The notes under the pieces are model-generated. The model was not told the DNA's origin, did no database searches, and saw only the letters and a list, made by a program, of their open reading frames with translations. DNA of 26,108 bases from a virus. Taxonomy: Duplodnaviria; Heunggongvirae; Uroviricota; Caudoviricetes. The position numbers and the translations under genes were made by a program. Each line of letters begins with the position of its first letter. Position 1 is the first letter of the stretch. Positions 3,062 through 13,927 of this stretch are shown piece after piece. The stretch is from positions 1 through 26,108 of the IMG/VR virus record IMGVR_UViG_3300033463_000062. One strand, written 5' to 3'.

Positions 3062-3961
3062 TTATGCCGTCACCGTTTGAATTTTTGCGCCTATTTTTGC
3101 GATATGACGACGGACGGTTTTATCACTTGTCGCCGTCATATCGGCTATTTCTTTTTGACTATATCCAGCGACTATATACTCGCATATAAGTCTGTCATAC
3201 TTGTCGTTTATATCATACTCTATATAAAAATCATCAAGATTTCTATAATCAAAGTTTTCAAAGTACTTGATTGTTTCAAGTGCCGTCTGTTTTTCGTTGT
3301 CGTCGTCGCCGTTGTCGTCGCCGTTGTCGTTGTTTTCCATAGCCGTCATACTTTTATTTAAGTTAGATATATAATTGTCAACGGCTCGGCTTGCAAGTGC
3401 TTTGACTGTTATTTTACGAGTGCCTTTTTTTGTTTTAATAGCAACCTCGTCATACGGCATCAGACCATATTTTATAAAGTGTTCCCATAAGACAAGATAC
3501 GCGGTTATAATTAAATCGTGACCGTTGCCTTGCGTATCGTCGTTTGTGAATTTTTTGTTAAGACTGTCAATCGTCGCCGTCGTGCGCTCCGTCATTGTTT
3601 TCAAGCCGTCGTCGTGCGTTTTTGCGTACTCTTTTGCGAGTATCTCACGAGTTTTTTCTAACTCGCGCATAATACTGCAATACCCGTCCGCGTTCTTATC
3701 ACGCATATAATCGGCGTAGGTATCACGGAGCAAATCATCATACAACGGCAAAGCCGTCAAGCACTGTTTACGGATAAGCACGGGACGGACGGCAAAGAAA
3801 GCCGTCTTTAAAAACAAGTGTTCTATATACTCGTCAAAAGAGTCAAAATCTGTCTTGTCTTGATAGTTTGTTATTATCTCTGTGAAAGTAGATATTATAA
3901 GCGTCTGTCCGTTAAGCGTTATCGCTTTCAAGCCGTTGTTTAAAATCCTTGTTTTTTGCAT
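3062..3961 (-). CDS. sigma-factor-like protein with C-terminal region-4/LuxR-type HTH (299 aa)
   Basis: C-terminal GYSQKEIADMTATSDKTVRRHIAKI is a sigma4/LuxR-type HTH; DLIITAYLVLWE...RAVDNYI resembles sigma region 2. AGGAG RBS. Confidence 0.65.
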   Translation of the reverse strand: MQKTRILNNGLKAITLNGQTLIISTFTEIITNYQDKTDFDSFDEYIEHLFLKTAFFAVRPVLIRKQCLTALPLYDDLLRDTYADYMRDKNADGYCSIMRELEKTREILAKEYAKTHDDGLKTMTERTTATIDSLNKKFTNDDTQGNGHDLIITAYLVLWEHFIKYGLMPYDEVAIKTKKGTRKITVKALASRAVDNYISNLNKSMTAMENNDNGDDNGDDDNEKQTALETIKYFENFDYRNLDDFYIEYDINDKYDRLICEYIVAGYSQKEIADMTATSDKTVRRHIAKIGAKIQTVTA

Positions 3962-5907: not shown

Positions 5908-8679
5908 TTGAGTAAATCCGTTTACATTGCAGGACTTGACGCAAAAGACATACACATAGCGAATATGCTCTCGCCGGACAGAGGCTACGACTACCGTGAC
6001 TCTAACGGGCGGCTCAACACCCGTCGCTTTCTGTGCTCTTTGGATTATTCCCTCGACCAAATCAAGCTCAGAGAGATATACGAGAAAGTTTGCCGCAGAA
6101 CGGACTTCTCTTTCCGCATCAACCGCAAGTGGTATTGCACGCAGGTCATAAACGTCACTTTCAAATACAGCGTTTGTGAATTCAACCAGTGCGGGACAAA
6201 CCGCTTCGTAAAGTACGGTCATAACGGACGCAACCTTGCGTTCGAAGACTGCGTTTGCCTGTATAACGGAGAGCTCATCGGAATTCAGCTTGACATGCCC
6301 GTGGCAAATCCTATTTCGCCCGATTTGCTCGGAAGGTATTTCAAGTTTGAAAACGGCGTCTACAAAAAAGCCAGAAGCCCCAAGACCCTCATCAAGACTT
6401 CGGCTTTGCGCAAACAGCTCTACGATAACGGCTTTATGGCAGGCGGGATCCACTACGTCCGTTGGAAGCGTTCGGCAGGAAGCTCCCGTGTTGGCAAGTG
6501 CCTGTTCATCAACGAGCGCCTGTATGACAGGATGCACCGGTGGGAGATGTGCGGCATCCACGTCAAAGAAGGCGATACCATAGACCTTGCGGCTTTGGAG
6601 TCGTACATCAGTCTTACATCGTCTTCGATCATCGACACCCTCGAGTTGGAGCCGAAGAACATTCTCGTTATTGACGATGCTGAATCGTGTTTCACTGAAC
6701 CACAATTCAGTGTGTCGGTGTTCGAGAAAAACGGAAAGCTTCAGGCGGAGAAAGCCGACTGTCAGATAAAGAACAGTATCTGGGACGGGCAAGGCTTTAT
6801 TGACCGCGAAGCAATGGGCAAATACCGTGACCGCGGAATGATATTGCTGCGGAATAAATTCTTTAAAAGCTGCTGCTTCAACTGCAACCTTCAGCAGTTC
6901 TTCGCAGACCACGGCATCACGGAAGTCTCGCAGTTAAACGGATACACTCAGGCGGAGCGCGTAGAAGACATCAAGCTTGTCGTAACCCGCTCCTCAATAA
7001 AGTATTTCAAGTTCGGAACGCTCGAGCAATGGTTGGCTAATCTGGAATTCATCTATGGAATAGTCAAACACGAAAAACCGACGCACTTCTTCGGCGGGCA
7101 AATGGTTCAAACCCACTACCAGCTTTTGAACACCATTCAGATGACAGAGTCCGACGTTTGGCAGTTCCTTAAGCCGACGTTCGACTACGTTGAACTGCTC
7201 AAAACTAACCCCGCGGTGCTCCGCCACCACATCAAATACCCCATTGTCGGAGACGAGGTCGAGTTATCCCCCCTGCAAACGAAAAACGATGTTATATGGA
7301 AGCTTATGGGTATAACGGATAAGTTCACCGAGACGCGCCTGTATAATGAGTTTAAAAATGAGATTATTCGGGCATACTTAAAGAACGTAAGGCTCGGTCA
7401 CGTTCTGGTCAACGGCAATTACTCCACAATGGTCGGCAACCCTCTCGAAATGCTCTACGCAATCATCGGGCAGTTCGACGGGCAGAGTATGCTCGGCGTC
7501 GGCAATATCCACACCAAGTGCTTCGAGTACGGCAAGACGCTTATCGGCTCCCGCAGCCCTCACGTCTCAATGAGCAACGTGTGGCTCCCGCGGAACGTGG
7601 AGTGCGAGGAGCTCGACCGCTACCTCAATATGACGAACGAGATCGTCGCGGTCAACTCAATCGGCGAGAGCACGCTCGACAAGCTCAGCGGATGCGACTT
7701 CGACTCGGACACCGTGCTTCTGACGGACAACGAGTTTTTGATTAAGGCGGCGCAGAAGTGGTACGGCAAGTTCCCTATCGCTCTGAATAACGTCGCGGCG
7801 GTCAAGACCAAGAGAGCCTACACTAACGAGCAGAAAGCCGAGCTCGACATCAAGACCGGTAATAATCTCATCGGAGACATAATCAACCTCAGCCAAGAGC
7901 TCAATACGAGAATTTGGGACGAGCTGAACAGCGGCGCGTCTTTCGACGAGGTGTTCGGTATATACCTTGACGTGTGCAAGCTCAACATAATGTCCTGCCT
8001 TGAGATAGACTCCGCAAAGAAGGAATTCAATATCAGCAACTCCAAAGAGCTTGCGGAGCTCCGCCGTAAGTACGAGTTGTTGGACGACGCGGGCAAAAAG
8101 ATAAAGCCCAACTTCTTCGCAGCGAAAGACAAGGGCAAAGGCTATTACGTTCCGCATAAGAAGAACTATAAGCGCCACGACACCACAATGGACTACCTCG
8201 AGCACTGTGTAAACCGATTCGCCTTACAGTTGTCCCGTAAGTTTAACAGAAAAAACTATACACTATTTTCCGCAATCCTGACGCTCACGGAGTACGACAG
8301 GAACTGCGCGTCAAAGTACGCCGTGCGCAGATGCGTGTCTATCGTGCGCGGAATGCTCGACGCTATCAAGTCTGTGTATTCGTCCAACCTCGACAATCAG
8401 GATAAGTTCAAACTGTATAGCGACATGCGCCAAGACTGCAACGAGTATATCGGCAGAATGAAATTCAACCCCGACACAATGATATACTTTTTAAAGACCA
8501 TAGAGGGCGAGCGGTATAAGAACATCTACAACACGATATTCTACACGCTGTTCGGCTACCCGAATACGATGTTCTACGAGGTCGTATTAAATTCGGCTAA
8601 TCCGATACGCAATCTTATATCTGCCGAAGACGGAGACATCGTCCTGTATGGAAAACGATACAAGGAGGAAATACTATAA
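5908..8679 (+). CDS. yonO: YonO-like single-subunit DNA-dependent RNA polymerase (two-barrel family related to eukaryotic RdRP), 923 aa
   Basis: RSAGSSRVGKCLF, SIWDGQG, GSRSPH and LSGCDFDSD (D597-F-D599-S-D601, nt 7696-7710) catalytic aspartate triad; SPbeta-like synteny with HU, phosphoesterase and head genes; TTG start. Confidence 0.88.
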   Translation: MSKSVYIAGLDAKDIHIANMLSPDRGYDYRDSNGRLNTRRFLCSLDYSLDQIKLREIYEKVCRRTDFSFRINRKWYCTQVINVTFKYSVCEFNQCGTNRFVKYGHNGRNLAFEDCVCLYNGELIGIQLDMPVANPISPDLLGRYFKFENGVYKKARSPKTLIKTSALRKQLYDNGFMAGGIHYVRWKRSAGSSRVGKCLFINERLYDRMHRWEMCGIHVKEGDTIDLAALESYISLTSSSIIDTLELEPKNILVIDDAESCFTEPQFSVSVFEKNGKLQAEKADCQIKNSIWDGQGFIDREAMGKYRDRGMILLRNKFFKSCCFNCNLQQFFADHGITEVSQLNGYTQAERVEDIKLVVTRSSIKYFKFGTLEQWLANLEFIYGIVKHEKPTHFFGGQMVQTHYQLLNTIQMTESDVWQFLKPTFDYVELLKTNPAVLRHHIKYPIVGDEVELSPLQTKNDVIWKLMGITDKFTETRLYNEFKNEIIRAYLKNVRLGHVLVNGNYSTMVGNPLEMLYAIIGQFDGQSMLGVGNIHTKCFEYGKTLIGSRSPHVSMSNVWLPRNVECEELDRYLNMTNEIVAVNSIGESTLDKLSGCDFDSDTVLLTDNEFLIKAAQKWYGKFPIALNNVAAVKTKRAYTNEQKAELDIKTGNNLIGDIINLSQELNTRIWDELNSGASFDEVFGIYLDVCKLNIMSCLEIDSAKKEFNISNSKELAELRRKYELLDDAGKKIKPNFFAAKDKGKGYYVPHKKNYKRHDTTMDYLEHCVNRFALQLSRKFNRKNYTLFSAILTLTEYDRNCASKYAVRRCVSIVRGMLDAIKSVYSSNLDNQDKFKLYSDMRQDCNEYIGRMKFNPDTMIYFLKTIEGERYKNIYNTIFYTLFGYPNTMFYEVVLNSANPIRNLISAEDGDIVLYGKRYKEEIL

Positions 8680-8852
8680 CGGCAAACCGTGATAAAAAAG
8701 AATACTTGGTGGACGACACCAAGTTTGTGGTTAACAGAAAATTCACAAACGGCAACAAAAAATTCGACGTGTATTGCGACTTTATTATAAAAAAGCAAAA
8801 GCGCTTGTGTTATAATGAATGTCGCAAAAGAGTGCCGGAAAGGAGTATATGA
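8676..8852 (+). CDS. small TnpW-like protein (58 aa, probable ATA start)
   Basis: AGGAGG 7 nt before ATA. Reads (M)TANRDKKEYLVDDTKFVVNRKFTNGNKKFDVYCDFIIKKQKRLCYNECRKRVPERSI. Overlaps the RNAP stop (ATAA) and the recombinase start (ATGA). TnpW similarity is a recollection-level match. Confidence 0.55.
   Translation: MTANRDKKEYLVDDTKFVVNRKFTNGNKKFDVYCDFIIKKQKRLCYNECRKRVPERSI
8808..8816 (+). promoter_or_regulatory. extended -10 promoter for the serine recombinase
   Basis: TGT-TATAAT about 30 nt upstream of the ATG; no clear -35. Confidence 0.5.
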
Positions 8853-10504
8853 ACAAATATATCTACGCCGACACATATTCCAGATTGTCAAAAGAAGAAG
8901 CCAACAAAGCTGGCGAATCCCAAAGCATCGAAAACCAAAAGCTGATAATGCGTCAGTATTGCAAGAGCCACAATATTATTATTGTGAAGGAGTTCGTTGA
9001 CGACGGGTACACGGGAGCCACGTTCGACAGACCCGACTTTCAGAATATGCTCAAGCATCTGAACGAAGGCAAAGCGAACGCGGTGATCACGAAAGACCTG
9101 TCTCGGCTCGGGCGTAATGCGAGCGAAGCTTCGTACTACGCGGAGGAGTATTTCCCCGAGCACGATATTCTCTACCTTGCAATATCAGACAACTTCAACA
9201 GCGAGGACGTGAACCCGATGTCGTCATTCCTATTCGCATATAACGAGTTCTTTTTGCGAGACACCTCGAAAAAGATAAAGACCTCGTTAAAGGCGAAAAA
9301 GGAAAATGGCGAATACTGTTGCTGCCCGCCGTATGGTTACATGAAGGACAAAGACAAGCGGGGTCACCTCGTGCCAAATCCCGAAACGGCTCCAGCGGTG
9401 CGACGAGCCTTTCAACTTATATCAAACGGTATGTCCGCAAGGGCGACTGCGATGCAGCTTACGGCAGAAGGCTTCGTCACCCCGTCGGTTTACTTTCTGA
9501 GGAACTCGCCCAAGAAGGCAAAAGCCTCTCCCGACTGGAACTCGACCACCGTGCAGCGAATGATCAAGAACGAAACCTATATCGGAAACACCGTTCTCGG
9601 CAAAAGCTTCAAGGTGAGCTACAAGTCCAAGAAGAAGAAGCAGATCCCCGAGGATGAATACATCCGTCACCCGAACACCCACGTCCCTCTCGTCTCAAGA
9701 GAAGTGTTCGACGCGGCTAACCGCAACATTGGATACAACACGAGAGACTGGAGAAAGAACCCACACCTGCCCGTCAGACAGAATATCTTCAACGGAGTGG
9801 TGTTCTGCAGTAAGTGCGGAAGCGCGATGTGCAGCGGAGGAGGTCAGTACAAAGGCTCGAAAGAGAGATACTGGTATCTGTCCTGTACCCACATCACGAG
9901 CAAGAAGAAACGGTGTGAGGGTGGTGCCCGTATCAAATATTCAAGTCTATGCCAAGTCATAAAGAACGAGTTGAACAGTATCCTCGCTTTGACCGACGAA
10001 GAGATGAAAGACATAACGCGTGCGGCAGTTGAGCGGTCACGTTCCTCCAACGACTATTTCAGCAGCGACGACTACTACGGCTCGTTGCAGAAAAAGTCTG
10101 AGGTGTTGATACAGTCGATGCAGAAGCTGTATAACGACTTGGCGGCGGGAGTCATAACACCCGAGCTCCACAGTTCTTTGATAGAGCGAACGAGAAAAGA
10201 GTATGAGACCTTGCAAGAGCAATTGAGAGAGGGAGAAAGCCACGAAGACCAGGGCGATGACGTCGAGGAAGCGTATAAGAACTTCTTTAGCTTGGTAAAA
10301 AGCACGTCGCAAGTTGAGGAGCTGACCCCCGAACTGATACGCACGTTCATCCAGAGAATTGAGATTGAGCCGAGAGTTTTGCCGCCGGGGTATCAGATTG
10401 CGATGCCGAGCGTCCCTTGCACGCAGACAATCACCATTTATTATAGATTTATAGGAAACTGTGATTTTTCGACCGCTAATTTGTGCGAAATCACCAACGA
10501 CTAA
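8849..10504 (+). CDS. large serine recombinase (resolvase + recombinase + Zn-ribbon + DUF4368-like tail), ~551 aa
   Basis: YSRLS catalytic motif, SIENQK, DDGYTG...DRPDF, KDLSRLGRN, PPYGY, CSKCG Zn ribbon, C-terminal ITIYYRFIG. Start moved to ATG 8849 (AAAGGAG RBS). Confidence 0.93.
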   Translation: MNKYIYADTYSRLSKEEANKAGESQSIENQKLIMRQYCKSHNIIIVKEFVDDGYTGATFDRPDFQNMLKHLNEGKANAVITKDLSRLGRNASEASYYAEEYFPEHDILYLAISDNFNSEDVNPMSSFLFAYNEFFLRDTSKKIKTSLKAKKENGEYCCCPPYGYMKDKDKRGHLVPNPETAPAVRRAFQLISNGMSARATAMQLTAEGFVTPSVYFLRNSPKKAKASPDWNSTTVQRMIKNETYIGNTVLGKSFKVSYKSKKKKQIPEDEYIRHPNTHVPLVSREVFDAANRNIGYNTRDWRKNPHLPVRQNIFNGVVFCSKCGSAMCSGGGQYKGSKERYWYLSCTHITSKKKRCEGGARIKYSSLCQVIKNELNSILALTDEEMKDITRAAVERSRSSNDYFSSDDYYGSLQKKSEVLIQSMQKLYNDLAAGVITPELHSSLIERTRKEYETLQEQLREGESHEDQGDDVEEAYKNFFSLVKSTSQVEELTPELIRTFIQRIEIEPRVLPPGYQIAMPSVPCTQTITIYYRFIGNCDFSTANLCEITND

Positions 10505-10579: not shown

Positions 10580-10600
10580 GAGCCAAAGGCTCTTTTTTTT
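10580..10600 (+). terminator. intrinsic terminator after the recombinase
   Basis: GAGCC-aaa-GGCTC plus T8. Confidence 0.6.
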
Positions 10601-10603
10601 ATG

Positions 10604-11084
10604 CAAAAATTTACAAAAAAGAGGGCATTTTTATCCCCCGCTTTTGAGAACTTGGCTTAAATACTGGGGATTGAGGGTAATTTGGGATGGACTATAGGAG
10701 AGGATAGTCAACTCGGTCGGAACGGAGACCTTAAACCCGTTTCCAACGGGTTTGCGATGAAGCGAATGACGGGGTCGGTATCCGCACGGGCGCAGAGCTT
10801 TGTATAGGGTTAGAGAGTATCCGCAGACCGACTTAGGCGAAAGCCGAAAGAAAACTTTCAAAGTGCCATTTTAAAAAGTGCCGGTGGTGGCGAATCTCCC
10901 CTCCTGCCGTGTCATCACCTCCCACACGGTTGCCACCACTTGCACCCTTTCACTTTAGCACGCTAAAGTGGCACGACTCAAAAATTTACAAAAAATGACC
11001 CTTTTTTATCCCCACCATTTCGCAACTTGGCTTATTTGCTGGGGTTTGATGGTTATTCGGGATGGACTATAGGAAGAGTAGTCA
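10604..11084 (+). repeat. ~106-bp imperfect direct repeat x2 (10604-10710, 10979-11084)
   Basis: Identical blocks CAAAAATTTACAAAAAA, TTTTTATCCCC, AACTTGGCTTA, CTGGGG, GGGATGGACTATAGGA and TAGTCA, separated by variable spacers of almost equal length. Confidence 0.92.
10711..10978 (+). ncRNA. candidate structured RNA between the repeats
   Basis: Stems AAACCCGTT/AACGGGTTT, GGGTCGGT/ACCGACTT, GGC-GAAA-GCC, a 16-bp stem 10878-10893/10930-10945, and CCGTGT/ACACGG; G-U pairs favour the plus strand. Confidence 0.55.
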
Positions 11085-11237
11085 CGAATTGACAATATTT
11101 GACATTAGTCGGGTCTCGGTGTTATCGGGATCGCGTCAAGGGAAGAGGGAAAGAAATTTTGATTGGGCGAATCAAAATTTCTTTGAAAGCGGCAAGCCGC
11201 ATGGAATTCGTGCTAATCAAAAATAAAATTTAAGGGA

Positions 11238-11426
11238 GTGATAAGTATAATTCAAATCACAAAAGAGGAAAGCTTGAAAATGAGGGAACGCTTTCCGAAA
11301 GTATCAATTACGATTACAAGCAGACAGACGAGTCACAAAAAGTATTATATGGAGGAAGCGTCCGTCTATGTCAAGTATCTGAATAAAATGCGTGAAGAGG
11401 AGATGAAGACGTGGACGAAGAAATAA
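11238..11426 (+). CDS. small phage protein (62 aa)
   Basis: AAGGGAG RBS, GTG start, overlaps the next gene; first gene of the late operon. Confidence 0.7.
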   Translation: MISIIQITKEESLKMRERFPKVSITITSRQTSHKKYYMEEASVYVKYLNKMREEEMKTWTKK

Positions 11427-12613
11427 GACGCTACCCCGGTGAAGAAGAAAACCAGTTTATTTTTCGCGTATGCCAACATAAAGATGCAATCGGTTCGTGG
11501 CAAGACGTAGCCGACCTGCTGAACAACGAACTCGGACACAATTATTCCGAAAGCACATACCGCAAGAAATTCGAGGCGTTTGAAATTATGTATAACGCAA
11601 ACATCAACAAGCTGGCGAATACCGACGCCGTCGACAAACTTCGCCAACTGAAAGAAGAAATCAAAGAGGAGCGTTACAAACTCCAAGCGCTGAACCTTGC
11701 CAACAACAGAAACCTTCGCCAGAAAAGCAGAATAGACCTTTTCTGCGAACAGGTAGGAGACAGACTCGAGGCGATACCGTTCGAACCGCTGTTAGAGGAA
11801 ATCCCCGCGGCGAAGAAAATGGATGACGAGTGGGTTCTCACGATTGCCGATATTCATTACGGCGCGAAGTTCCAGACTGCGACAAACGAGTATTCAAGAG
11901 AGGAAGCAAGAAGACGTTTTTCTACTCTTCTCGGTAGAGTGACACAGTATGCGCTCGAGCAAGACATCCGCGAGATGAACGTGGTATGTCTCGGTGATAC
12001 CATACAGGGACTGCTCCGCTACACAGACCTCAAGCTCAACGAGGCTCCCGTGGTCGATTGCACGGTTGAGGTCGGCGGACTCATAGCGGGGTTCCTTGAC
12101 GGACTCTCAAAGGTGTGCCGCGTCAACTACTATCACGTGCCGACGGCGAACCATTCTCAGACGCGCCCTCTCGGAAGCAAGGCTTCGGAGATCGCGACGG
12201 AAGACTTGGAGAAAGTCGTTGTTGCTATAATCACGTCCGCACTTAGAGATAACGGTAGAGTTACCGTAAGTTCTAATTCGGGCAACGATAGAATCGCGTT
12301 CAAAGTTGCAAATTTCAATTGTGTGGCAACACACGGACATACAATCAAGAGTGTCAGAAAAGCCATAAAGGACATATCGACGAAAGACAGAATGTTCTAC
12401 GACTATATGTTTGTAGGGCACTACCACGACGGCGGAGAGATTGCCGCCGGTGAAGACGAAAGTCATAATGTCGAAGTTCTTGTTTGTCCGAGCATAGTCG
12501 GAACAGACCCTTATGCAGATTCTCTGCTCCTCGGGTCAAAGGCGGCTGCGAAGCTGTTCAGGTTTGACAAAGAGTTCGGACACGTTGGCGACGAATTATT
12601 TATACTCAATTAA
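11411..12613 (+). CDS. calcineurin-like metallophosphoesterase (YonJ-like by position), 400 aa
   Basis: DIHYG, LGDTIQG, ANH, THGH and VGHYH motifs match the DxH/GD/NH/H/GHxH set. Confidence 0.88.
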   Translation: MDEEIRRYPGEEENQFIFRVCQHKDAIGSWQDVADLLNNELGHNYSESTYRKKFEAFEIMYNANINKLANTDAVDKLRQLKEEIKEERYKLQALNLANNRNLRQKSRIDLFCEQVGDRLEAIPFEPLLEEIPAAKKMDDEWVLTIADIHYGAKFQTATNEYSREEARRRFSTLLGRVTQYALEQDIREMNVVCLGDTIQGLLRYTDLKLNEAPVVDCTVEVGGLIAGFLDGLSKVCRVNYYHVPTANHSQTRPLGSKASEIATEDLEKVVVAIITSALRDNGRVTVSSNSGNDRIAFKVANFNCVATHGHTIKSVRKAIKDISTKDRMFYDYMFVGHYHDGGEIAAGEDESHNVEVLVCPSIVGTDPYADSLLLGSKAAAKLFRFDKEFGHVGDELFILN

Positions 12614-12626
12614 GGAGGATATTAAG

Positions 12627-12923
12627 GTGATTAAGGCTGATTTAGTCGCTCGCATTGCGGACGAGTGCGGAACCACACAGGTTGCCGCTGAAAAATGGGT
12701 AAACGCCATTTTCAACATTGTGGGCGAAGTATTAGCAGAAGGGCAAGACATAGTCATTGTTGGTTTCGGAAAGTTCCGTATCCTTCCGACGCCGGAAAAG
12801 AAAAGTAAGAACCCGATAACCGGAGAAATGGTTGTAACGCCTGCGGGGTATCGAGTAAAGTTCGTACCGGCGGACAGGATAAAGAAAGGATTGAACCACA
12901 TCGGCTTTGTCTCATTTGACTGA
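12627..12923 (+). CDS. hup: HU/IHF-family DNA-binding protein (98 aa)
   Basis: KADLVARIA...IVGFGKF...KNPITGE...VKF; AAGGAGG RBS before GTG 12627. Confidence 0.92.
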   Translation: MIKADLVARIADECGTTQVAAEKWVNAIFNIVGEVLAEGQDIVIVGFGKFRILPTPEKKSKNPITGEMVVTPAGYRVKFVPADRIKKGLNHIGFVSFD

Positions 12924-13927
12924 TGCAGAAAGTTAAACCGATAACGCCCGAAGACCTTGAGGGCATAAACGACTTCAACCGATTTATAATGGAGGACTTC
13001 CTGACGAACTCAACGGAACTCTCCCCGAAATCGTTGAAAGTGTATAGGTCAAATTTACAAATCTGGTTCTGGTGGGTCAAGAATAATCTTGGCAACAAGT
13101 CAGAATTGGATATCAAGCCTCTTGACTACAAGAGGTACCAGAACTGGCTGGTGAATAGGGATTGTTCGAGTTCGGACGTTAATATCAAGCGTGCTACGAT
13201 AAGCTCTTTAAACAAGTATATCGAAGTCTATTACGCTGATGATTACCCTATGTTTCATAATTTCATAAACGCCAGTATTCCGCGCCCTGCAAAGAACGTG
13301 GTGCACGAAAAGAAGCCGCTTAAGAAAGAAGAATTCAAGCATCTTGTTGATGAACTGACTCGGCTTGAGAAGTGGCAACAGCTCGCCTACCTACTGTTTA
13401 CGTTTGACACAGGGTGTCGGAGGGCGGAAAGCAGACAGCTTTTGAAAGAGGTCGTAACCTATGCTCCCATAGAAAAGGTTAAGGTTACGCAGGACGAAAA
13501 CGGCAACGACGTCGTTCATCGCGTTGTGATGTATTCAACGCATCCGATACGGTGCAAAGGCAGAGGTGCTGCGGGTAAGGTCAGACGTCTCACGTTTGGC
13601 GAAGACGCTATGCAGGCTATTAAGAAATGGCTTGAAGCGAGAGGTAAAGACGACTGCCCGTATGTGTTTGTTTCAAACGTCAACGGCAAAATGCAGCAAG
13701 TCAGCGATACGTGTTTTAATGGATGGTGTAAGGGTTTTGCAAAAATCGTCGGTCGTGAATTTCACCCGCACAACATTAGACACACGAGAGCGACAATGGC
13801 AGCCGTTGAGGAAGGCATAGACGCGAAGGTCGTTCAGAAGCTGCTCGGTCATGAAAGCGTGACAACCACGGAAACCTCATATATCGTCCGCGAAGAGTCG
13901 GAAGACTTAGACGATTTGTTTGAATAA
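12923..13927 (+). CDS. tyrosine recombinase/integrase (334 aa)
   Basis: TGCRRAE (R), KGRG (K), HNIRH (HxxR), LLGH and C-terminal Y: full catalytic set. Confidence 0.93.
   Translation: MQKVKPITPEDLEGINDFNRFIMEDFLTNSTELSPKSLKVYRSNLQIWFWWVKNNLGNKSELDIKPLDYKRYQNWLVNRDCSSSDVNIKRATISSLNKYIEVYYADDYPMFHNFINASIPRPAKNVVHEKKPLKKEEFKHLVDELTRLEKWQQLAYLLFTFDTGCRRAESRQLLKEVVTYAPIEKVKVTQDENGNDVVHRVVMYSTHPIRCKGRGAAGKVRRLTFGEDAMQAIKKWLEARGKDDCPYVFVSNVNGKMQQVSDTCFNGWCKGFAKIVGREFHPHNIRHTRATMAAVEEGIDAKVVQKLLGHESVTTTETSYIVREESEDLDDLFE

Follow-up and report, generated by a model that had tools for sequence, protein, structure and literature searches.

In an SPbeta-like phage from the gut, two direct copies of an element of about 100 nt stand at the head of the late genes, and each copy probably serves the phage's own YonO-type RNA polymerase as a promoter. 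The same identification had been put forward in an earlier account of this DNA that drew on its letters alone (here called the sequence-only reading), and it is supported, as a candidate, by comparison with other phages. A related signal follows YonO-type polymerase genes across a broad family, the copies find the corresponding element of SPbeta and of several other loci as their top-ranking alignment, and, in SPbeta, a weak match to the start box of the family lies in register with the one mapped start of a YonO-dependent transcript.

Of a widespread family of minimal RNA polymerases, related to the cellular multi-subunit enzymes and to the polymerases of eukaryotic RNA silencing, YonO alone has been studied. 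It transcribes the late genes of SPbeta as one operon (Forrest et al., 2017; PMC5467207). The sole mapped YonO-dependent start lies at position 2225998 of B. subtilis 168 and is lost upon deletion of yonO, while the promoter sequence and any requirement for a helper were left open by that study (PMC5467207). A 2021 review (PMC8270828) holds nothing further on the YonO promoter, and no later definition of a YonO-type promoter was encountered in the literature searched, which included both of these papers (PMC5467207; PMC8270828). The remark in the sequence-only reading that this class of polymerase has no well-defined promoter consensus agrees with both sources.

Sequences and Methods

The window is the whole stretch of DNA that was analysed, 26,108 nt of the phage record IMGVR_UViG_3300033463_000062, whose full length is 90,108 bp and whose completeness is estimated at 58%. 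About 85 loci around YonO-type genes, 76 of them non-redundant, were collected from viral contigs, genomes and metagenomes and are designated by L numbers. The region examined for motifs comprised the 230–260 nt past the polymerase stop codon on the same strand. A position matrix, referred to as the Bacillales matrix, was trained on 31 Bacillales loci only, and its best hit was sought over the entire locus on both strands. For local alignment, the two copies served as queries over whole loci, likewise on both strands, and the aligned segments were ranked.

A Duplicated Element between a Terminator and the Late Genes

A repeat search places the direct copies at 10604-10699 and 10979-11074 of the + strand, as 96 nt aligned without gaps at 80% identity and a spacing of 375 nt. 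BLAST across the 90,108-bp record lengthens the match to 10604-10709 and 10979-11083, at 79% identity with one indel, and detects no third copy; on either side the similarity ends abruptly. Between the copies, identical runs of 17, 1, 11, 1, 3, 11, 1, 6, 4, 3, 3 and 16 nt are interspersed with 19 mismatches, so the blocks of 17, 11, 11, 6 and 16 bp and the 375-bp distance given in the sequence-only reading are exact by both alignment and repeat search. The last of these blocks, the 16-mer GGGATGGACTATAGGA, occurs twice when up to three mismatches are permitted, against 0.08 expected occurrences. The positions of these and the neighbouring features are collected in Table 1.

Table 1. Features of the window around the duplicated element
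Feature	Position	Strand	Description or basis
YonO-like single-chain two-barrel RNA polymerase gene	5908..8679	+	923 aa, DFDSD catalytic loop
Large serine recombinase gene	8819..10504	+	Pfam Resolvase, Recombinase, Zn_ribbon_recom; phrog_95
Intrinsic terminator, GAGCCAAAGGCTC then T8	10580..10600	+	Terminator scan; after serine recombinase gene
Copy 1 of the element	10604..10709	+	Repeat search, BLAST, alignment rank 1 to SPbeta, L013, L003
Copy 1, A/T box	10604-10620	+
Copy 1, block TTTTTATCCCC	10628-10638	+
Copy 1, block AACTTGGCTTA	10649-10659	+
Copy 1, block CTGGGG	10664-10669	+
Copy 1, start box GGGATGGACTATAGGA	10684-10699	+	Runs into hairpin GACTAT/ATAGTC
Copy 1, hairpin GACTAT/ATAGTC	10690-10709	+
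drum RNA, Rfam RF02958	10752..10862	+	Covariance search: 65 bits vs gathering score 43, E 2.8e-10, model 1-112
Imperfect long hairpin	10873..10950	+	19-nt arms, 79% complementary; after drum RNA; weak T-run follows
Copy 2 of the element	10979..11083	+	Blocks and register as copy 1; alignment rank 1 to L007, L003
Copy 2, start box	11059-11074	+	Hairpin GACTA/TAGTC
Core-only third match GGGATCGCGTCAAGGGAAGAGG	11126..11147	+	Window's best match to family start box
Perfect 15-bp inverted repeat, 5-nt loop	11150..11184	+	Late-operon leader; repeat search
First small late-operon ORF	11238..11426	+	59-62 aa; homologous start position is ATA at 11247
YonJ-like exonuclease gene, second of late operon	11411..12613	+	33% identity full-length to SPbeta YonJ, E 1e-74; phrog_284
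HU-like DNA-binding protein gene, counterpart of SPbeta yonN	12513..12923	+	Pfam Bac_DNA_binding, E 3e-20

The pair of copies has the merit of revealing which blocks stay fixed and which segments vary freely. The further contention of the sequence-only reading, that this is the pattern of a selected site and not of neutral duplication, stands in part: the alignment is ungapped and the blocks are matched in relatives, whereas the clustering of mismatches taken alone reaches a permutation p of 0.06. The argument for selected blocks drawn from the two copies by themselves is suggestive, not proven, and the case for selection on the element is carried by the comparison with other phages described below.

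As potential RNA, the copies are ordinary. Their folding energies correspond to z scores of -0.2 and -0.8, and the hairpin in each is weak and no better than in shuffled sequences. A CCCC/GGGG pairing and the terminal hairpin are preserved in both copies; read column by column, the substitutions in the spacers are non-compensatory, so that inner stems predicted in one copy are broken in the other. Non-compensatory change, together with unremarkable folds, favours contacts to double-stranded DNA over RNA structure.

Copy 1 starts 4 nt past the intrinsic terminator, and 43 nt separate its end from a drum RNA; copy 2 sits between the drum RNA and the late genes. By virtue of this anatomy, the gap from the terminator at 10600 to the drum RNA at 10752 has to contain a start signal, and it is this gap that copy 1 occupies. 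A promoter scan finds no + strand site of the sigma-70 type (-35/-10 with a spacing of 16-18 nt) within either copy, and a domain search of the 90-kb record, 58% complete, finds no sigma region-2 domain. A helix-turn-helix protein resembling GerE and sigma region 4 is encoded at 3062-3961. The sole sigma-70-like hit nearby, TTGTCA-18-TATAGT on the minus strand over copy 2, was set aside, being of chance frequency and absent from copy 1. The descriptive claims of the sequence-only reading about this setting are accurate: the copies follow the recombinase terminator and precede the structural operon, they lack a sigma-A -10/-35 pair, and structured sequence comes after each, namely the drum RNA after copy 1 and the 15-bp inverted repeat after copy 2.

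A third site deserves mention. Of all sites in the window, the one that best fits the family start box lies outside both copies, 55 nt after copy 2 and some 90–100 nt before the first late ORF, and is the top hit of the window both with an 18-mer matrix (15.1 bits, at 11131) and with the Bacillales-trained 20-mer matrix (13.2-13.4 bits, at 11128). It may be a further start site, comparable to the core-only site in SPbeta, or a purine-rich feature of the leader.

The Polymerase, the Late Operon, and the drum RNA

The 923-aa protein encoded upstream is, judging by its sequence, a YonO relative. It matches phrog_8308 (E 3.8e-92), a PHROG that also matches in B. subtilis among the control genomes, and BLASTP aligns 484 aa of it to SPbeta YonO at 21% identity (E 4e-7), with DFDSD placed against DNDGD. 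The elements are accompanied in the same phage by a cognate polymerase of the YonO type, as is P_YonO, the mapped SPbeta promoter. In L003, L005, L013, L014, L131, L132 and L141 the element lies directly 3′ of the polymerase gene; in the window the two are separated by the serine recombinase gene of 1.7 kb, at a place where the relatives have no gene. Where it adjoins the polymerase gene, as in most relatives, the element could pass for the end of that gene; here it is more than that, having been split off by a 1.7-kb gene and a terminator and duplicated before an extra transcription unit. Such an arrangement is what a portable promoter would show.

Downstream, the locus is syntenic with the late region of SPbeta (yonO - yonN - yonK - yonJ - ... 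- yonF). The small ORF that opens the late operon is related to its counterpart in L013 (BLASTP, E 4e-7), and inspection by eye places this ORF after the element in L003, L005, L014, L131 and L132 as well; BLASTP gave no match between it and SPbeta YonK. Beyond the exonuclease and HU-like genes come a tyrosine-integrase-like gene, terminase, portal and other virion genes. The late strand carries the copies downstream of the polymerase gene and upstream of the first late genes, with a non-coding RNA following, and this corresponds to the position of P_YonO (cf. PMC5467207).

The drum RNA is likely the product of copy 1. RNAs of this kind normally have terminators after them (PMC5737381). In four Lachnospirales genomes, drum is flanked by an ordinary sigma-A promoter and a terminator, and the drum of L127 has an adjoining gene for a PBECR4 nuclease (Pfam); no PBECR4 gene was found in the 90-kb record, which is 58% complete.

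A Family-Wide Signal behind YonO-Type Polymerase Genes

Expectation-maximisation recovers, from the sequence past the polymerase genes, a motif of the TCGTCTTTAAGGGAGA type that scores at least 12 bits in 46 of the 76 loci, compared with 1–5 loci in shuffled sets. Its form varies with lineage: GAGATAATCGTCATAAGGGAGA in Bacillus, CGCTTAATCGTCTTTAAGGGAGA in Paenibacillus and others, TTTTGTGTCTATAAGGGAAG in Lachnospiraceae, and TATAGGAGAGGATAG, TATAGGATAGAAG or TATGGAGGA in the clade of the window. The Bacillales matrix carries over to loci on which it was not trained: the 300-nt slot contains its best hit of the entire locus in 8 of the 31 Clostridia and other loci, where 0.5 would be expected, and in 2 of the 13 loci of the window's clade, against an expectation of 0.2. 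In 30 of 44 loci, a module with a CCTT..AAGG dyad, AACCCTTGATAcATAAGGGTTT, begins at a nearly constant distance of 48 nt (interquartile range 43-50) ahead of the start of the core; shuffled sets gave 12-15 loci. Four related phage records carry the element once per genome, which is expected where a single late operon is served by one promoter.

Many YonO loci also possess a hairpin that is variable in sequence and fixed in place, just 5′ of the start box. In many of them, this hairpin and a T-run may constitute the terminator of the polymerase gene. A leader stem that would pair the purine-rich start with downstream sequence was considered and discarded, as it did no better family-wide than an upstream control segment; within the Bacillus group alone, and weakly, pairing is seen between the purine-rich box and a pyrimidine run plus T-run farther downstream, with some compensatory changes. 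Two other lines were also abandoned. A profile HMM of 41 family elements failed to recover even that of SPbeta, the family being too divergent and its spacing too variable, and second cores of at least 12.5 bits in other loci proved, with few exceptions, to be chance matches within coding sequence, among them a conserved run of HU codons.

The Window's Copies Compared with the Family

When the copies are aligned over whole loci, their top alignment coincides with the post-polymerase element in SPbeta (rank 1 of 2658), L013 (1 of 988), L003 (1 of 694, for both copies) and L007 (1 of 894); against most other loci, the corresponding ranks lie within the top 5-15%. In the reverse direction, the SPbeta element finds its best match in the 90-kb record at copy 1, by a small margin (43 vs 40). 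Reading the sequences side by side, the copies and these relatives have in common an A/T box, AAAAAyTTnAnCAAAAAAG, the block TTTATCCC, the series CTTGG..ACTGGG..TTGAG, a TTTGG.GAT, and a purine-rich start. The sequence-only reading had suggested a search for the blocks in other YonO phages, and the outcome is favourable, with a related signal in the 46 loci and first-rank alignments in the four named here.

The relation of the copies to the element behind yonO homologues is expressed in these alignments, and the scores of their cores with the family matrices are weak (6-8 bits). Copy 1, at 10685, obtains 6.4 bits with the Bacillales 20-mer matrix, a score in the top 10 among the window's roughly 52,000 positions. 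A simple profile HMM made from both copies yields only weak hits, with E of 0.29 and above, in 14 related loci, where they fall directly after the polymerase gene. The exact 15-mer GGATGGACTATAGGA is found in 26 loci of IMG/VR, where only the word and its close surroundings match, and these occurrences were dismissed as chance. Searches of viral, genome and metagenome collections brought up no relative with more than 60% polymerase identity.

The Mapped Start Site of SPbeta

Via the 168 genome, the mapped start corresponds to position 10452 of the SPbeta locus (L043), the first A of TAAT in GTCGGAT[A]ATAGTCATTTATGAGGG; this position falls inside the primer-extension amplicon of Forrest et al., which cross-checks the mapping. 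A hairpin lies just 5′ of it, and in two related Bacillus prophages its sequence varies while the pairing is preserved. Over 40 kb of SPbeta, the best late-strand hit of the Bacillales matrix is the element after yonO (14.2 bits), and the sixth-best starts at 10453 (7.8 bits), with the mapped start as position 2 of the 20-mer. A top-six hit at most 2 nt from the mapped start has a chance of about 1 in 1000.

The mapped start of SPbeta lies 790 nt beyond the well-conserved element that follows yonO and precedes yonN; the base of that element corresponding in register to the mapped start is position 2,225,208 of B. subtilis 168 (L043 11242). The two sites share only GATAAT[C/A]GTCAT, an adjacent hairpin and a weak matrix score, and their likeness is not outstanding in a generic alignment of the 40 kb. 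With the region of the mapped start, the window's copies share only GAT..GAC/GTC..purine run. The 36 co-directional genes of SPbeta from yonK to yomA compare with 37 YonO-dependent genes (PMC5467207), numbers that fit yonN within or outside the YonO-dependent set.

Proposed Mechanism

The polymerase gene would presumably be transcribed early by the host enzyme, after which the phage polymerase would initiate inside the invariant 16-nt block. We infer the occurrence of a start at this place, its dependence on the phage polymerase, and the choice of the +1 base from the comparison. In the SPbeta register, the predicted starts would be at about G10686 for copy 1 and about G11061 for copy 2; by analogy with a TATA-GGGAGA arrangement, they would instead follow TATA, at G10697 and G11072. 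Both sets of positions are uncertain, and all four lie within the 16-nt block, near the start guessed in the sequence-only reading. The upstream blocks, comprising the A/T box, TTTTTATCCCC and AACTTGGCTTA..CTGGGG, would provide additional contacts on double-stranded DNA for the polymerase or a helper protein, and the 5′ end of the RNA would be folded into the small hairpin that starts within the start box.

Initiation at copy 1 would yield a short transcript bearing the drum RNA, and initiation at copy 2 a long late mRNA encompassing the small ORF, the YonJ-like exonuclease, HU, terminase, portal and so on. This division of labour, a structured RNA from copy 1 and the late mRNA from copy 2, had been anticipated in the sequence-only reading and is retained as a candidate, as drum follows copy 1 and the late genes follow copy 2.

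Alternative Explanations

Several other roles for the copies have to be weighed against a promoter for the phage polymerase. They could be promoters read by the host RNA polymerase, aided by an activator or specificity factor that is unusual or encoded by the phage. That a promoter is needed at the copies fits any enzyme, drum in the four Lachnospirales genomes is driven by sigma-A promoters, and a factor could be missed in a record that is 58% complete and that does encode the GerE/sigma-region-4-like protein at 3062-3961. We nonetheless consider a host enzyme unlikely at these sites, given that neither copy has a -35/-10 pair and the record has no sigma region-2 domain, that the signal travels with YonO-type genes in Bacilli, Clostridia and uncultured phages, and that a weak start-box match is in register with a start lost in the yonO deletion (PMC5467207). 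An action at the level of RNA, whereby the copies would be transcribed from upstream and function as leader, processing or antitermination signals like the put sites of HK022, is improbable. The strong terminator immediately before copy 1, the ordinary folding energies (z -0.2 and -0.8), the non-compensatory spacer changes and the family-wide leader stem that did no better than its control all speak against it, even though one of the two copies precedes each transcription unit, both retain the CCCC/GGGG pairing and terminal hairpin, and the purine box of the Bacillus type shows pairing with some compensatory changes. Just as improbable is a site for a regulator, be it a repressor of the MrpR/SPBRE type, an HU-type or another architectural protein, that is not itself a promoter. 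Conservation in several blocks at fixed spacing suits a protein contact surface, and the upstream module of the family is partly a dyad (CCTT..AAGG) at a fixed distance; against this, there are two copies here and one per genome in relatives, always directed toward late genes, and the same 150 nt would still need a promoter. An MrpR operator in particular is unlikely, as the published ChAP-seq peaks exclude yonN and yonK (PMC10516654).

The remaining alternatives fare worse. That the repeat is a neutral, ageing duplication devoid of function could draw on the block-clustering test of the copy pair (p = 0.06), and is made very improbable by the ends of the duplicated unit, which coincide with the terminator and the transcript start region, by the agreement of its blocks with those conserved in SPbeta and other relatives, and by a family signal far above shuffles. 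Recombination sites, the alternative raised in the sequence-only reading, or a pac/cos packaging site are scarcely credible. A large serine recombinase gene does adjoin the copies, and the element occurs nowhere else in the genome and lies 5′ of the packaging genes. The recombinase explanation fails because relatives carry the element without a recombinase gene alongside; moreover, the copies are direct repeats that have neither overall dyad symmetry nor an att-type dyad core. As for packaging, the pac region of SPbeta is around yonR-yonP and not after yonO (PMC8270828), and in the complete relative G208, which has direct terminal repeats, the polymerase locus is 45-60 kb from the ends.

Broader Implications

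Taken together with the family-wide signal, promoters for the phage polymerase at both copies invite a more general proposal, which we advance tentatively and regard as doubtful in its full extent. The element would define a sigma-independent, two-part class of promoters of single-chain two-barrel RNA polymerases, which phages of Bacilli and Clostridia would retain immediately after the polymerase gene. Its parts would be an upstream module, located some 45 to 25 nt ahead of the start and in many lineages represented by the CCTT..AAGG dyad, and a start box of the form T[A]AT-N5-TTAAGGGAGA, or TATAGGAGAGG in the clade of the window. Structured ‘orphan’ RNAs in the sense of Weinberg et al. would be the first products: drum here, DUF3800-VIII in SPbeta, skipping-rope in a Paenibacillus prophage, and ROOL, tmRNA and tRNAs elsewhere. 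In the window, a duplicated promoter would drive a drum RNA without its PBECR4 partner, possibly as a decoy or antidote for a nuclease.

The window constitutes a natural experiment, as the candidate signal has sharp boundaries, occurs twice, stands apart from the polymerase gene and lies ahead of two distinct products. The comparison also links drum, skipping-rope, DUF3800-VIII and ROOL, RNAs that have been catalogued and remain unexplained, to the heads of operons that are probably read by a YonO-type polymerase. If the assignment is true, a defined promoter would permit in vitro initiation assays and structures of initiation complexes, and might furnish an orthogonal expression system for Firmicutes.

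Comparison with Known Systems

Among other polymerase systems, there is a formal resemblance to promoters of the T7 type, in which an A/T-rich TATA or TAAA leads into a purine-rich, GGGAGA-like start (..CACTATAGGGAGA), and where the window has GACTATAGGAGAGG. In T7-type systems, a phage-specific polymerase drives the late genes, often with a stem-loop at the 5′ end of the RNA. The differences are nonetheless substantial, as the window's polymerase is of an unrelated fold (two-barrel, YonO type), the element extends over some 100 nt with far-upstream blocks as opposed to a 23-nt unit, and by the SPbeta register its start may be about 11 nt before the GG. PF00940, the domain of T7-type polymerases, has no match in the 90-kb record (58% complete), nor in the control genomes. 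A second parallel is provided by the promoters of the virion RNA polymerase of phage N4, which are hairpin-dependent. Many YonO loci similarly place a hairpin at a fixed position just 5′ of the start box, whereas in the window's copies the hairpin is weak and no better than shuffles.

SPbeta itself offers a repeated element in SPBRE, the operator of MrpR, a 15-bp motif at about ten early promoters (PMC10516654). The window's element resembles it as a repeated, phage-specific, non-coding element in an SPbeta-like phage, and differs in its length of about 105 nt, its one or two copies, and its location at the head of the late genes. The RNA behind copy 1 agrees with the drum RNA of Weinberg et al. 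(2017; PMC5737381) over the full model and above the gathering score; it differs from the four bacterial examples in having the phage element upstream in place of a sigma-A promoter.

The remaining comparison is with P_YonO. Like this promoter, which precedes an unannotated non-coding RNA and yonK-yonJ (PMC5467207), the copies are on the late strand, after the polymerase gene and before a non-coding RNA and late genes; the mapped start of P_YonO is itself in register with a site that weakly fits the start box of the family, T[A]AT-N5-TTTA.G.GGG. The copies deviate from P_YonO in lacking TAAT, with GGGATGGAC in place of GAGATAATCGTC, and in their weak scores, and they are closer to the second SPbeta element, directly after yonO, than to the mapped P_YonO site. 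Viewed against all of these systems, the element of the window represents no new kind of system, and would instead be a well-placed addition to the barely characterised class of promoters of YonO-type polymerases.

The late-operon leader

When the whole window was scanned, the highest match to the family start box, the core motif found 3′ of YonO-type polymerase genes, was GGGATCGCGTCAAGGGAAGAGG at 11126-11147 (13-15 bits). GGGAT-N8-GG(G)AAGAG is common to this site and to the cores of both ~105-nt candidate promoter elements, but the upstream blocks of those two copies are missing here. The late-operon leader also contains a perfect inverted repeat, which may stabilise the 5′ end or form a hairpin with a regulatory role, and 3′ of it a GCGGC/GCCGC hairpin that is devoid of a T-run.

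Alignment with relatives that begin with GTG, TTG or ATG places the apparent start of the first late ORF at the ATA at 11247, which is preceded at 8 nt by AAGGGAG. The homologous codon is likewise ATA (about position 9995) in L005, the locus of the closest relative. The start proposed by the ORF tool, the GTG at 11238, partly coincides with the ribosome-binding site.

Structured RNAs near YonO-type genes

The same-strand stretch 3′ of YonO-type genes is a hot spot of structured RNAs (see table). In Bacillus-type prophages, a conserved leader of ~65 nt (..AGCTAATTTCCACATAAAAGGGCTAGTAC..) follows the post-yonO start box. The 5′ end of this leader is rich in purines and pairs with a pyrimidine run that precedes a T-run. 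The leader resembles a small RNA or an attenuator, and an Rfam search of the SPbeta copy returned nothing at E ≤ 0.1.

The phage drum RNA (10752-10862) is found outside its customary genomic setting. In four Lachnospirales genomes (L126-L129), drum RNAs are accompanied by a sigma-A promoter (e.g., TTGACT-16-TGcTATAAT in L126) and a terminator, and then by a gene. In L127 this gene encodes a PBECR4 nuclease (PF18813, E 9e-45); the genes in L126, L128 and L129 open with similar N-termini, and the L126 gene looks broken. No PBECR4 match was found anywhere in the 90-kb phage record, itself estimated to be 58% complete. Speculatively, the orphan drum RNA could serve the phage as a decoy or an antidote.

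Features in the window and in related loci
Feature	Location	Setting
Skipping-rope RNA	L054 7231-7320	Downstream of YonO-type gene, same strand
DUF3800-VIII RNA	SPbeta (L043) 9410-9475	Downstream of yonO, same strand
ROOL, tmRNA, ~25 tRNAs	L014 11119-14781	Downstream of YonO-type gene, same strand
tRNA arrays	L007-L012, L086, L087, L105	Downstream of YonO-type gene, same strand
Post-yonO leader	L043 11240-11170; equivalent position in L046-L050, L099, L113, L060, L069	Minus strand (L043)
Perfect 15-bp inverted repeat	Window 11150-11184	Late-operon leader; arms AAAGAAATTTTGATT / AATCAAAATTTCTTT, 5-nt loop
Overlong or interrupted YonO-type genes	L005 6001-9765; L118 5001-8953; L113 110-3609; L045 and L078 after residue 625	
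Tyrosine-integrase-family gene	Window 12923-13927	Inside late operon

Interrupted polymerase genes

Several YonO-type genes exceed the needs of the protein by ~1 kb, or stop at residue 625 and resume later. These overlong or interrupted genes, together with a conserved, structured-looking sequence common to the L045 and L078 inserts (..GTGAACCTAGAAATCTAGGGTG..), suggest that the polymerase gene harbours introns or inteins.

Recombinase-type genes

Two recombinase-type proteins are encoded in the window, a serine recombinase (8819-10504) and a member of the tyrosine-integrase family. In the stretch 8811-8821, the annotated ATG of the former lies 2 nt after an extended −10 box, TGtTATAAT. There are two readings: a leaderless mRNA of unusual geometry, or a real start codon further downstream. 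The placement of the tyrosine-integrase-family gene has a parallel in SPbeta, where yomM likewise resides within the late operon.
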